Shown piece by piece: positions 33,416 through 37,697 of a stretch of 64,000 nt of DNA. Source of the stretch: Dictyostelium discoideum (lineage: Eukaryota); contig CM000151.3 of NCBI GenBank assembly GCA_000004695.1, positions 4,896,001 through 4,960,000 of the forward strand, given 5' to 3'. Position 1 is the stretch's first letter; each line of letters opens with the position of its first letter. The notes under the pieces were generated by a model. The model had not been told where the DNA came from. It made no database searches and saw only the letters and a list, made by a program, of their open reading frames with translations. The translations under genes were made by a program, and so were the position numbers.

Positions 33416-33589
33416 TTAAAAACAATAGCAAGGTTTAACAAAGAATAATGATTTTGCATATAAGTCTGTTGAACTAATTTCATTTTGTTTAAAGTTTAAT
33501 CCATTTTCATTTGTATTGGTATTTATTTTGTTAACCAAGTTTAATGGTTTTGAATTAATGATTTGACTAATTGATTCTATAAAATTTGG

Positions 33590-33623
<34 letters not shown>

Positions 33624-33704
33624 ATGGGTTTTATTAGTAATTGTTTTGGGTATGGTGATTACAATGATTAAGATCTTTGGAAGAAAATACATACTGAATA
33701 ACAT
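33416..33704 (-). CDS. Small split-gene peptide family member E (56 aa, variant C-terminus); complement(join(33695..33704,33416..33576))
   Basis: ATGTTATTCA|gtatgt...ttatag|. Product: MLFKSISQIINSKPLNLVNKINTNTNENGLNFKQNEISSTDLYAKSLFFVKPCYCF. Confidence 0.5.
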
Positions 33705-34403
33705 TTTATTTGGTTTTTTATTTTTATTTTTATTTTCAAAGTTTTTTAAATAAATAATTGTTTTTTGTTTTTATAAATGATTGGAAAAAAAAAAAAAAAA
33801 ATCCTATTTATATTAATTTTAAAAAAAAAAAAAGAATAAAATAAATCGTTTTTTTTTTTTCCAAAAAAATAATGATTTAACTAGTTCGATTTAGGGTTGT
33901 TTGTGGGTTATAAAATATTTTTTAATATTAAAAAAAAAAAAAAAATAAAAAAAAATAAAAGATCAGATAAATTGAGATGGTGTGGAAGTGAGAGAATAAT
34001 AATTATCAAGTATAATAACAAAATTGTTGATGTAATTTATATTCTATTATTTTCAAAGATCTTTGTACACCATAAACCAAAATGAGAATACCTTTAAAAG
34101 ATTCTTTTAAGAATTTGCTTTTTTTTTATTTTATTACTGAAAAAAAAAAAAAAAAAAAAAAAAACGTTCTTTTTTTTTTTTTTTTTTTTTGTTTTTTTTT
34201 TTTTTTGTTAAATAATAATAAAAATTGTTCAATATGATTTAATATTAAAAGATAACTTGTGGAAATAAAATTTATAAAAATAAAAAGAATAATTTTAATA
34301 TTAAAAAAAAAAAAAAAAAAGAGGGACAAATCAAAAATTTTATTATTAAAAAAAAAAAATAAAAAATGGAAAACCCATCTTTTTTTAACTTTTTATTATT
34401 CTA

Positions 34404-34443
<40 letters not shown>

Positions 34444-34621
34444 AAGGAACAGCTTTTTAAAAAAAATAATAATATATATTATATTATTATTTATAAAATA
34501 ACAACAATATTAAAGTTGTTTTAAAAAGATAAAAAAAAAAAAAAAGATAAAAAAAAAATAAATTTTTTTTTTTTTTTTTTTTTCCAGTTTCCAAATTTAA
34601 AATAATTTTTTTTTTTTTTTT

Positions 34622-35317
34622 TTAACCTAATAAACTTGAGAAATCATAAAATCTTTCAGAACGTGACCATACAATTTGATTTAAATGTCTAAATTGTCTA
34701 ATTCTATGGAATGGAATGGCTTCATCTAATTTTAATAACTCGACATCACATAAACCATCGAAACGATCTTCATAGGTAATGATAAAATCTTGAATTTTAT
34801 CTTTTAATTGTTCATCATGTAAAATTCTATTATAAACTTCAATACTTGATGGTAATCTTTCTTTTTTCTTTACATCAGTTTCTTTTTCAATAATTGATTT
34901 TACTTCTAATTTTGTTAATTTCTTTGTTTTATTATTATTTTCATCTGATAATTCATCATTTGATTCAGACTCTGATGGTGATTCTATAGCAGTAGTAGTG
35001 GTTGTAGTTGTTGGTGAAGTTGATAATTTATTTTCTTTTAATTGTTTAATTGCTAATTTCTTTGCTTTTTTATATTCAATTGCAGCTTTATAATCTTTAT
35101 CAGTTCTTGGAATTACTTGACCAGTTTTACAACTTGTATGACCAGAATTTAATTTATTTAAATTATTATTTAATTGATTAGTTTGTAATGAATAATCTTT
35201 ACCATCAATATATGTTTGATCATAATCATAATCTTCATCTTCACTGTCATTATCATAGGTAGTGAATTCTCTTTCATTTGAATAAGTTGGATATGAGAAA
35301 TAAATTGTTGTCGACAT
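34622..35317 (-). CDS. Hypothetical acidic/Ser-Thr-rich protein (231 aa), inverted paralog of 20421..21131
   Basis: Single ORF MSTTIYFSYPTYSNEREFTTYDNDSEDEDYDYDQTY.. with a C-terminal block (..KKLTKLEVKSIIEKETDVKKKERLPSSIEVYNRILHDEQLKDKIQDFIITYEDRFDGLCDVELLKLDEAIPFHRIRQFRHLNQIVWSRSERFYDFSSLLG) nearly identical to the + strand copy. It lies inside the small-gene array. Confidence 0.6.
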   Translation of the reverse strand: MSTTIYFSYPTYSNEREFTTYDNDSEDEDYDYDQTYIDGKDYSLQTNQLNNNLNKLNSGHTSCKTGQVIPRTDKDYKAAIEYKKAKKLAIKQLKENKLSTSPTTTTTTTAIESPSESESNDELSDENNNKTKKLTKLEVKSIIEKETDVKKKERLPSSIEVYNRILHDEQLKDKIQDFIITYEDRFDGLCDVELLKLDEAIPFHRIRQFRHLNQIVWSRSERFYDFSSLLG

Positions 35318-36273
35318 GATTATATATTTATATGTATTTATTTATTTAATATTAAATTATTTGTTTTTGTTTGTTTATTTACAATTGTTTTTAAAAAAAA
35401 AGATATTTATTTATATTTATATATTGGTTTTATTTAATATATTTGTTTAATTTGTTTTGTTTTTTTTTATTGAATGTTTTTTTTTTATTTTAATTTATAG
35501 AAAAAAAAAAATTATAAATTAGAATTTTAATTGTATTTTCTCATTTTTTTTCTTGAAAAACATGAGAAAACGAAACATTTGAGTTTCAAAGAAAAATTGA
35601 GAAAATTTGGTTAAAAATAAAAAAAAAATAAAAAAAAAAATGAAAAAAAAAATAAAAAAATTAAAAAAAAAAAATTAAAAAAAAAAAAAAAAAAAAAAAA
35701 ATTTAAAGAATCCAAAACCCACCTTCAGTGTAAAATAAAAATGAAACAAATAATCTTTTGAAATAATTTTTTTTTTTTTTTATTTTTCTTTTTTTAATTT
35801 TTTTTTTATAACTAAAGTATTTGGATAATCTGGAAAGCTACCACAGTGTTATTTATTTATTTTATTTTATTTTAAATAATAATTTAATTTTTTTTGAATA
35901 TTATTTTTTAACATTTTTTTAGTAAAATTAAAAATAAAACATTAAGAGTAGAGGGTATGAGCCTCGGTGAATATATCATTTCTATTGAAGTGCATTATTA
36001 ACGAATCCTCAGTATAATTGGAAAAATTGTGATGTGCCAAAAGATAATGATGAAATTGGAAAAGAAAAAAACAAATAAAACCATTACCAACTATTTTTTT
36101 TTTTTTTTTTGTTTTATATAAAATAAATAAATAATAATTAAAAAAAAAAAAAAAATCATTGAAATCTAGATTTATCTTAAAAAATTTTATTTTATTTTAT
36201 TTTTTTTAAAAATTATTTTAAAATAATGAGTCGCCCAAATAAAATTAAACATAATAATATCTATTAATTATTT

Positions 36274-36551
36274 TTAGAAACTATACATTTGTGGTCTTGT
36301 AAAGACTGCATTATTATAATGTTTATTTGTTCCAACAGTATTATTCATTTCAAATAAATTTGATAATTCATTAGAATTGATTGAAACTTGTACAATTTTA
36401 TTTGATGATGATGATGATGATGATGATGAAAATAATTGATTTAATGATTCTAAATTTAGAAAAAATAAAAAATATAATTTTAAAATTAATATATAATTAA
36501 TTTAATTAATAAAAATAAATTAGTAATAAATTAATACATACTGAATAACAT
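36274..36551 (-). CDS. Small split-gene peptide family member F (61 aa); complement(join(36542..36551,36274..36449))
   Basis: ATGTTATTCA|gtatgt...aaatttag|. Product: MLFKSLNQLFSSSSSSSSSNKIVQVSINSNELSNLFEMNNTVGTNKHYNNAVFTRPQMYSF. Confidence 0.55.
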
Positions 36552-37237
36552 TTTAATTTTTATTATATATTTTTTTTAATTAATAATTGAAGTTAATTTA
36601 AAAACTAATAATAGTATATATATTTTATTGTAATAGTTTTTTTTATTTGTTGTTGTTGATTTTGATTTTATTGTTGAATGATGATATAAAATTTTTTTTT
36701 TTTTCTATTTAAATAAAAAATCAAATTCAATTGAGGAAATGGTAGTTAAAAGTATTGTTTTAAAAATGATGGGATAATTTGTAGTTTGTTGTTGACAACA
36801 TATCTTAAACTACATGACTTTATTTAATTTTATTTAATTTTAATTTTAATTTTTATTTTTATTCACCCACTAACCCCACCAAGCAAAAAATCACGATACC
36901 TTTCACAAGTAAAAACGACTATATTTAGTTTATTTTTCACTTGTGGTAATATTTTAAAATATTTATATATATATATACTTATATATATAAAAATATAAAA
37001 GGGTAAAAGAGGGAAAATTAAATTTTAAAAATCATCATTTTTTAAATTTATATCCTGAATTTCATAACAATATTACCAAAACAATCTCATACTTGATTTT
37101 ATTCAATTATTTGATTACATTTATTTGGTATTAAATTTTATTTGTATCAAATTTAGTTTTCTCATTTTTTTAATAAAATATTTTATAATAAAATCGAAAA
37201 AGTAAAAGAAATAATAATAATAATAATAATTTTAAAA

Positions 37238-37280
<43 letters not shown>

Positions 37281-37431
37281 AATTGTTTTATTTTAGAATG
37301 AAAAAAAAAGATAGTTTATTTTTGATTTAATGATACAAATTTATTGAATTATTTTACATTTTTTAATTTTTAATTTTTTTTTTTCTTTAATTATTTCTTT
37401 TAAAAAAGAAAAATAACAATAATCATTATAA

Positions 37432-37697
37432 TTATAATTCAAAACAATAACTTGGTTTCACAAATAAAATTGATTTTGTTGTTATTCTTAATGAGTTGAT
37501 TTCATTTGAGTTATTTAAATAATTGTTAAAATCAATTGATACATTATTTATTTTATTATATTTAATTATTGAATTTGATTTAAAATTTTGATTTAATGAT
37601 TCTAAAAATTATGTTATATAAATATATATATATATATATATTAGTAAAAATATTAATTAAGATTAATTAATTTAATTTTTTACTTACTATATAGCAT
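37432..37697 (-). CDS. Small split-gene peptide family member G (59 aa, variant start MLY and variant C-terminus); complement(join(37688..37697,37432..37601))
   Basis: ATGCTATATA|gtaagt...tttttag|. Product: MLYKSLNQNFKSNSIIKYNKINNVSIDFNNYLNNSNEINSLRITTKSILFVKPSYCFEL. Confidence 0.5.

Follow-up and report, generated by a model that had tools for sequence, protein, structure and literature searches.

The fungal lipopeptide pheromone precursors of the a-factor type, such as MFA1/MFA2 of Saccharomyces cerevisiae, the M-factor of Schizosaccharomyces pombe and the products of basidiomycete pheromone genes, are proteins of only ~35-60 amino acids (aa). The MSDIN-type precursors of ribosomally synthesized and post-translationally modified peptides (RiPPs), known from Amanita and Galerina, carry a core of 6-10 residues bracketed by two prolines. 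Dictyostelium discoideum itself has other tandem, taxonomically restricted families of small proteins, like hssA/2C/7E. The family described here is encoded in a 64-kb stretch of chromosome 2 of D. discoideum AX4, referred to as the window, which is very AT-rich (GC 14-31%). Nine two-exon genes, all on the minus strand, form a tandem array in this window, and their products are basic, N/S-rich proteins of 54-64 aa. Two of them, E and G, end in a Cys-containing tail. The reading that we favor, with some reserve, is that E and G are a sister pair within a lineage-restricted tandem family, which diversified by duplication and probably acts via its C-terminal peptide.

The family resembles the a-factor-type precursors in that its proteins are very small, have no signal peptide and are encoded by several paralogues. 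The end of E (...LFFVKPCYCF) also recalls that of a-factor (...VFWDPACVIA), with a hydrophobic and aromatic C-terminal peptide and a Pro shortly before the Cys at position -4. Unlike those precursors, however, eight of the ten family members lack a Cys, conservation extends to the N-terminal octapeptide and G of D. discoideum ends in CFEL, with an acidic residue at position a2 of a putative CaaX box. No sequence homology to these precursors was detected, and no link of the array to a mating-type locus, a receptor or an exporter is apparent from the locus, where its neighbors are unrelated. With the MSDIN-type precursors, the family has in common its short, multi-copy genes, a conserved N-terminal leader and C-terminal segment, an invariant Pro and a fast-evolving middle. 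It differs from them in that this middle comprises 30-45 low-complexity residues, the sole conserved Pro lies in the tail with none near the N-terminus, no prolyl-oligopeptidase gene is present in the locus and selection is strongest at the extreme C-terminus. The likeness to hssA/2C/7E, by description only, consists of the same organism, a size below 100 aa, low complexity, tandem arrangement and no homologues outside the dictyostelids, but the present family is defined by two terminal motifs.

Similarity to any protein beyond the family itself was not found among 5.8 billion clusters (word-indexed search with E and with an 18-sequence profile) or among 1.84 billion representatives (full HMMER search). 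Both searches returned only the D. discoideum and D. firmibasis members, the dispersed paralogue DDB_G0271318 and a low-complexity false hit (P0014). Five members searched against Pfam-A matched no family at E-value ≤0.01, the sole hit up to an E-value of 1 being at 0.08 and under the cut-off of that family, and the best hit of the family profile in the PDB had an E-value of 8.9. A metagenome scan with the conserved peptides gave 179 pattern hits, none of which was confirmed, and no paper naming any family gene identifier was found in the literature searched, even by prefix. Judged from these searches, the family is a previously undescribed one of lineage-restricted microproteins of an ordinary kind. 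It offers a case study of tandem microprotein diversification, in which ten paralogues have been kept in order through the history of the D. discoideum species complex and which combines selection on ~12 C-terminal residues, four stable tail versions, one tail remodeled by stop loss and one clear conversion. Small lineage-specific peptides without a signal peptide are an under-explored class in social amoebae, and the case would carry greater weight should these C-terminal peptides, conserved as they are, turn out to be signals or lipid-anchored regulators.

Tail versions and relationship of E and G

The comparison included seven genomes of five species: D. discoideum (AX4 and two wild isolates), D. 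cf. discoideum, D. citrinum, D. dimigraforme and D. firmibasis. The D. firmibasis locus (L001) was retrieved via its orthologue of E (P0002). Those of D. citrinum (L003), D. dimigraforme (L004), D. cf. discoideum (L005) and the wild D. discoideum (L006 and L007) were fetched with an MJ1316-domain gene embedded in the array as a handle, since the family has not been called in these assemblies.

All members carry an N-terminal octapeptide similar to MLFKSLNQ (M-L-[FY]-K-S-[LI]-x-Q) and one C-terminal motif, hydrophobic-F-x-[KR]-P-x(1-2)-aromatic-x-hydrophobic-COOH, of which the F and the P are invariant in 18 aligned sequences. A six-frame scan of the 64 kb for F-x-[RK]-P followed by a stop recovered the nine family tails and a single stray match, so the tails are not due to chance. 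The tail of E is SLFFVKPCYCF and that of G is SILFVKPSYCFEL. When a one-codon gap is allowed, F-V-K-P-(-)-C-Y-C-F aligns with F-T-R-P-Q-M-Y-S-F, and the subtypes are therefore versions of a single C-terminal motif rather than unrelated ends. The paralogue-specific versions, F-[FVI]-K-P-[CS]-Y-C-F and F-T-R-P-Q-M-Y-[SN]-F, differ in length by one codon.

The first-pass annotation of this DNA had divided the genes into two subtypes, E and G on the one hand and six genes ending in FTRPQMY[SN]F on the other, with H as a drifted copy. The coordinates and tails of E and G were reproduced exactly by spliced translation of the minus strand, and the two genes are indeed not adjacent but interleaved with the other type, with F and the MJ1316-domain gene between them. 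The QMY-type ending ([VIL]FTRPQMY[SN]F) was recovered for four genes (3, 4, 5 and F) and not for the others, as gene 2 ends in IFTRPMYNL and gene 1 in FFTRPYWSQY. Neither is H a drifted copy: its FTRPM[FY]WTNL tail occurs in all seven genomes and forms a separate, stable class. The two subtypes thus give way to at least four tail classes, the further ones being those of H (WTNL) and gene 1 (WSQY), and each is stable across orthologues. The tail of E reads KS[LI]FFVKPCYCF in all seven genomes, with silent changes at eight of the last 12 codons, and that of gene 1 reads FTRP[YC]WSQY in the six genomes that have this gene.

A side observation concerns the H tail of AX4 (38269-38304), which reads FTRPQMFWTNL, whereas the two wild D. 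discoideum, D. cf. discoideum and the three other species lack the Q. Compared with these orthologues, the extra Q is a one-codon (CAA) insertion in the AX4 lineage. Gain or loss of a Q codon also sets apart gene 2 and the E/G type.

Two forms of the G tail occur. The ancestral one, ...KPCYCF followed by the stop, is found in D. citrinum, D. dimigraforme and D. firmibasis, where the codons read TGT/TGC ... TTT TAA. The derived one, ...KPSYCFEL, is present in all four genomes of the discoideum clade (AX4, the two wild D. discoideum and D. cf. discoideum). The codon alignment of the seven genomes shows the SYCFEL ending to have arisen in this clade from the ancestral CYCF, by a TGT>AGT change plus the stop loss TAA>GAA. 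The new stop (37434..37432) is the next TAA downstream.

Neighbor-joining analysis of 18 sequences resolved each of the nine genes into a 1:1 orthologue pair and placed E and G in one clade with 100% bootstrap. This grouping is still obtained at 83% with the octapeptide and the tail removed, and the relationship therefore concerns the whole gene and not a converted tail. A tree of 63 sequences from the seven genomes gave 97% for E+G, 80% for E, 93% for G and 100% for H. F and gene 5 are the closest paralogues, with 60-67% identity. These trees show that E and G are sister paralogues, as are F and gene 5, and that all these paralogues are older than the split of D. discoideum, D. citrinum, D. 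dimigraforme and D. firmibasis.

The gene order is conserved as H, G, F, MJ1316, E, 5, 4, 3, 2, 2b and 1, with 1:1 orthologues, gene 2b being a tenth member that is treated below. The array sits between an FKBP gene and a cyclin gene, and the same order is found in D. firmibasis, D. citrinum, D. cf. discoideum and the two wild D. discoideum. The interleaving had been taken as a sign of an older duplication or of gene conversion, not of simple serial copying of neighbors. An old pattern is indeed borne out by the sister relationship of E and G, by the age of the paralogues, which predate the split of the five species, and by the order kept since. Conversion is not supported for E and G, each of which is monophyletic across species. 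The array site of D. dimigraforme (L004, 7290-11884 and downstream) has no family genes other than H, G, F and E, with MJ1316 between the last two. Beyond E, genes 5 to 1 are replaced by unrelated genes (one of 203 aa, then one of 3840 aa), which suggests a rearrangement breakpoint directly after E.

The homology of F and gene 5 extends beyond the coding region. The segments containing them have 66.5% identity over 786 nt in D. discoideum (E-value 2e-50) and 72.8% over 615 nt in D. firmibasis (E-value 5e-89), and the homology is also seen across species. The G-F spacer and the E-5 spacer are by far the best match of all spacer pairs (E-value 3e-20), and both gene pairs have the same order, the same orientation and comparable distances between the genes (880 and 803 nt). 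G-F and E-5, and with them the interleaving, would have been produced when a two-gene block, with a Cys-type gene followed by a QMY-type gene, was duplicated once. Such a block duplication appears most economical because F and gene 5 are sisters with shared flanks and because both pairs are alike in order, orientation and spacing.

Between D. discoideum and D. firmibasis, the identity of exon 2 is 69-85%, whereas introns and 200-nt flanks are near the shuffled background. For the nine orthologue pairs of these species, the ratio of nonsynonymous to synonymous substitution rates (dN/dS, Nei-Gojobori) is 0.37 overall and 0.28-0.60 per pair. The middle stands at 0.47 and the first eight codons, whose dS is likewise low, at 0.40, whereas the ratio drops to 0.11 in the last 12 codons (dS 0.56), a sign of strong purifying selection. 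The last 18 residues of E are identical in the two species despite five silent differences. By this substitution pattern, the family genes are protein-coding and the C-terminal peptide is their most constrained part.

The nine proteins have a mass of 6.2-7.4 kDa, and N, S, T and Q make up 36-52% of their residues. Eight of the nine have an isoelectric point of 9-10, the exception being gene 4 (5.5). The longest hydrophobic run is 3-4 residues in all nine, indicating neither a signal peptide nor a transmembrane segment; the signal peptide of a classical secreted precursor, with its hydrophobic core of ~7-15 residues, is thus found in none of them. AlphaFold2 modeling of E (9-sequence alignment) yielded a low-confidence model, with a predicted local distance difference test (pLDDT) score of 57.6, a predicted template modeling (pTM) score of 0.21 and short helices at residues 2-10 and 39-48. 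This is in keeping with disorder, and the family proteins are probably disordered.

Because selection is concentrated there, the C-terminal peptide is probably the active part. As selection falls mainly on the last 12-18 residues, the free C-terminus would be the working portion, either as a motif for docking or as a peptide that processing sets free, and the low-complexity middle would serve as a spacer or disordered carrier. In the E/G version, one Cys is invariant (Y-C-F), and the ancestral CYCF adds a Cys at -4, which could carry a lipid and so direct the protein to membranes. That the Cys-type and QMY-type tails could mark different processing or targeting was suggested in the first-pass annotation; the tails are strongly constrained, and CYCF would fit a permissive CaaX box.

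Several observations weigh against the reading of E and G as a duplicated sister pair acting via this peptide. The N-terminal octapeptide is conserved too, which the idea of an active C-terminus leaves unexplained. The discoideum clade replaced the -4 Cys in G, weakening the lipid idea, and the resulting CFEL has a Glu at a2. No homologue of known function emerged from the Pfam, protein-cluster, HMMER and PDB searches. As for the block duplication, the 3' flanks of G and E are no more alike than unrelated AT-rich flanks, and what similarity they have disappears with low-complexity masking. Moreover, E and G are far more diverged (~46% aa identity) than F and gene 5; this gap would require either a later homogenization of F and gene 5, of which D. 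citrinum gives an example, or separate events for the two pairs.

Other explanations for the Cys-type tail

The strongest of the other explanations, although we consider it improbable, is that the E/G tail is a working CaaX box, in which the -4 Cys is prenylated to give membrane-anchored or exported lipopeptides, the QMY subtype being unlipidated. CYCF is invariant in E across the seven genomes and in G across three species, G of the discoideum clade having CFEL. In yeast screens, the main restriction for farnesyltransferase (FTase) is D, E, K or R at a2; geranylgeranyltransferase I (GGTase-I) prefers a hydrophobic a2 with L, F, I, M or V at X, and a charged a2 is the main restriction here too (PMC10320760, PMC11304957). 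By these rules, yeast FTase restricts neither the a2 Cys nor the X Phe of CYCF, and GGTase-I has Phe among its consensus residues at X (PMC10320760, PMC11304957). The proteins are small, without a signal peptide and with a C-terminus predicted to be exposed. It is also suggestive that, on the very branch that lost the -4 Cys, the stop-loss extension put another Cys at -4 (CFEL). However, this coincidence is a single evolutionary event, and CFEL has a Glu at a2, the strongest negative determinant (enrichment value 0.48 in the screen table). The rules derive from yeast and mammalian enzymes and may not be those of Dictyostelium, and eight of the ten paralogues are equally constrained without any tail Cys. 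A "compensatory CaaX" in G, with the -4 Cys lost and regained by the two-residue extension, was considered as a candidate and down-weighted for the same Glu.

A bolder version, which we regard as very unlikely, would make the whole family precursors of C-terminal signaling peptides, the E/G subtype (ancestrally ...KPCYCF) being produced without a signal peptide and prenylated like a-factor and the QMY type acting unlipidated in the same system. If true, this would be the first lipopeptide signal in Amoebozoa, with a possible role in development or in the sexual (macrocyst) cycle. To our knowledge, no gene is known for any diffusible pheromone of the macrocyst cycle. Such pheromones have been reported for this cycle, according to work cited in PMC2824659.

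Slightly less credible still is the possibility that the N-terminal half serves as a presequence of the mitochondrial type, so that the conserved C-terminal part would be imported as a small peptide. A helix is predicted at residues 2-10, all nine proteins but that of gene 4 (-1) carry a positive net charge, and six of the nine have no acidic residue before position 27-31. However, the positive charges are few, no Arg is present in the N-terminal part and gene 1 has an Asp at position 4. As the members are homologous, their charge pattern is not independent evidence.

The Cys-type tail could also have been spread by conversion or concerted evolution between two non-adjacent genes that are not sisters as a whole. 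Conversion is real in this array, where it is seen between F and gene 5 of D. citrinum only. The D. citrinum gene at the position of F (L003, 9253-9498) has 84% identity to gene 5 and 67% to F of AX4 and groups with gene 5; the within-genome identity of F and gene 5 is 84% in D. citrinum, while the other species have 60-67%, which points to conversion of F by gene 5 in D. citrinum. For E and G, such an origin is nonetheless highly implausible. Their grouping persists at 83% without tail and octapeptide, E and G are each monophyletic across the five species, and their identity is a steady 43-49% in every genome, as expected from an old divergence with no later exchange.

Reality and annotation of the genes

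Hardly any credence is given to the view that the genes are decaying or meaningless open reading frames (ORFs) in AT-rich DNA, with tail differences due to drift. It is true that the protein collection lacks three of the nine AX4 models (those of G, gene 4 and gene 1), that G lost its stop codon and one Cys, and that the searches turned up neither a Pfam match nor a homologue outside the genus nor any literature. Against this, no ORF or splice site of the ten genes is broken in any genome examined, dN/dS is below one for each orthologue pair and lowest in the tail, and the conservation of exons is far above that of introns and flanks. The derived G tail is fixed and intact in the four genomes of the discoideum clade. 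The D. firmibasis gene models were made with MAKER from transcript assemblies together with the proteome of D. discoideum (PMC11193728). As several family genes are annotated in D. firmibasis while their AX4 orthologues are absent from the protein collection, this suggests that the D. firmibasis family models, that of G included, are backed by transcripts. In exact-protein look-ups, no transcript-derived contigs matching E or F of AX4 are on record.

The gene models were built by reading the minus strand, trying every AG acceptor and requiring an ORF of at least 40 aa. All nine genes in the window, E and G among them, have a common structure, in which a phase-1 intron of 83-118 nt separates a 10-nt exon 1 (ATGTTATTCA, then GTAAGT or GTATGT) from a single exon 2. 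Exon 1 is ATGTTATTCA followed by GTATGT in E and ATGCTATATA followed by GTAAGT in G. The translation of E (MLFKSISQIINSKPLNLVNKINTNTNENGLNFKQNEISSTDLYAKSLFFVKPCYCF) is 100% identical to the deposited protein DDB_G0275131 of D. discoideum AX4, and G is translated as MLYKSLNQNFKSNSIIKYNKINNVSIDFNNYLNNSNEINSLRITTKSILFVKPSYCFEL. That the acceptors of E and G are misplaced and their true frame encodes the common FTRPQMY tail can practically be dismissed, as a single acceptor in each gene gives an ORF of at least 40 aa, no frame near either gene gives FTRP in the six-frame scan, the E model equals the deposited protein and the Cys-type tail is held with silent substitutions in seven genomes.

A collection of 15 billion protein sequences, in which the other six AX4 members are present, lacks the exact products of G, gene 4 and gene 1, and these three genes are probably unannotated in AX4. 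The family is not called in D. citrinum, D. dimigraforme, D. cf. discoideum or the two wild D. discoideum assemblies.

A tenth gene, 2b (MLIKSLNQLLNSSNKLSHPIVNNTNELNYSFELNSIQGTNKYYNSIFTRPQMYNF; tail ...NSIFTRPQMYNF), lies between genes 2 and 1 in every gap-free genome (the two wild D. discoideum, D. cf. discoideum, D. citrinum and D. firmibasis), at the position where the AX4 assembly has a gap. Genes 2 and 1 of AX4 are only 156 nt apart, versus 570-970 nt elsewhere in the array. By this comparison, AX4 almost certainly holds ten family genes here, the tenth inside the gap. Gene 1, truncated by the gap in AX4, is complete in five other genomes; D. dimigraforme yielded no orthologue. In practice, the gains are modest: three AX4 genes apparently missing from the annotation, a tenth one in a reference gap and a family unannotated in five newer genomes.

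Coordinates, upstream elements and setting

Table 1. Features of the array in the window, from high to low coordinates (positions counted from the first nucleotide of the window).
Feature	Position	Strand	Description
Gene H (DDB_G0275137)	38269..38530	-	59 aa, end ...AVFTRPQMFWTNL; extra Q in AX4 only
Gene G	37432..37697	-	exon 1 37697..37688, intron 86 nt, exon 2 37601..37432; 59 aa, end ...KSILFVKPSYCFEL
Derived codons of G	37438..37452	-	AGT (Ser, 37452..37450) for ancestral TGT (Cys); GAA (37440..37438) for ancestral stop TAA
22-nt element	36780..36801	-	ATGTTGTCAACAACAAACTACA; ~230-250 nt upstream of F; core palindrome TGTTG-T-CAACA
Duplicated segment, F copy	36112..36854	-	gene + ~300 nt upstream + ~150-160 nt downstream; homologous to 32217..32941
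Gene F (DDB_G0275135)	36274..36551	-	61 aa, end ...AVFTRPQMYSF
MJ1316-domain gene (PF04457)	34622..35317	-	unrelated to the family; within the array, between F and E in all species
Gene E (DDB_G0275131)	33416..33704	-	exon 1 33704..33695, intron 118 nt, exon 2 33576..33416; 56 aa, end ...STDLYAKSLFFVKPCYCF
22-nt element, identical copy	32868..32889	-	upstream of gene 5
Duplicated segment, gene-5 copy	32217..32941	-	homologous to 36112..36854
Gene 5 (DDB_G0275233)	32353..32612	-	58 aa, end ...AVFTRPQMYSF
Gene 4	31229..31508	-	64 aa, end ...VIFTRPQMYNF
Gene 3 (DDB_G0275175)	30006..30259	-	54 aa, end ...VLFTRPQMYNF
Gene 2 (DDB_G0275229)	28863..29121	-	55 aa, end ...SIFTRPMYNL (without Q, last residue L)
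Assembly gap	28706..28805	.	run of 100 N; cuts the ATG of gene 1
Gene 1	28423..28707	-	60 aa, end ...FFTRPYWSQY; first two ATG bases inside the assembly gap

The 22-nt element is invariant in D. discoideum and D. firmibasis, both of which have it upstream of F and gene 5 at a distance of ~230-270 nt, and 0 occurrences are expected in shuffles. In the D. firmibasis locus, the element or its core lies at positions 4255, 10764 and 11856, the core being present also upstream of gene 4 there. No copy was found upstream of E or G, which have another short block in common (CATCAACAWTTT). The element is a candidate transcription-factor site, and the E/G and F/5 subtypes may be regulated differently.

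Islands rich in G/T or C/A occur 190-570 nt upstream of each family gene, in spacers of ~85-90% AT (e.g., 32952-32997, 36870-36887, 38093-38111, 33894-33907 and 33979-33992). Counterparts are found upstream of most D. firmibasis genes, none being above the threshold upstream of its E and G. Promoters of Dictyostelium have G-box and CA-rich elements (CAE), which the islands resemble. A role of the islands as such regulatory elements was considered and dropped, as they are common across the window, including coding CAA repeats, and also lie upstream of other genes.

The spacers (37200-37290 and many others) contain (TAAA)n microsatellites and long A/T homopolymers, which give rise to spurious BLAST similarity when no low-complexity filter is applied. 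A match between the flanks of G and E was rejected as evidence, since it is of this (TAAA)n type and no stronger than matches between unrelated pairs.

The MJ1316-domain gene inside the array has a paralogue at 20421-21131 (+), in inverted orientation and ~13.5 kb apart. Between the two lie genes 1 to E, which make up the lower part of the array, together with a cyclin-like gene and the gene for the V-ATPase proteolipid (24574-25065). No second array was found in the neighborhood of the second paralogue. The pair looks like an old inverted duplication, which may have put the MJ1316-domain gene inside the array.

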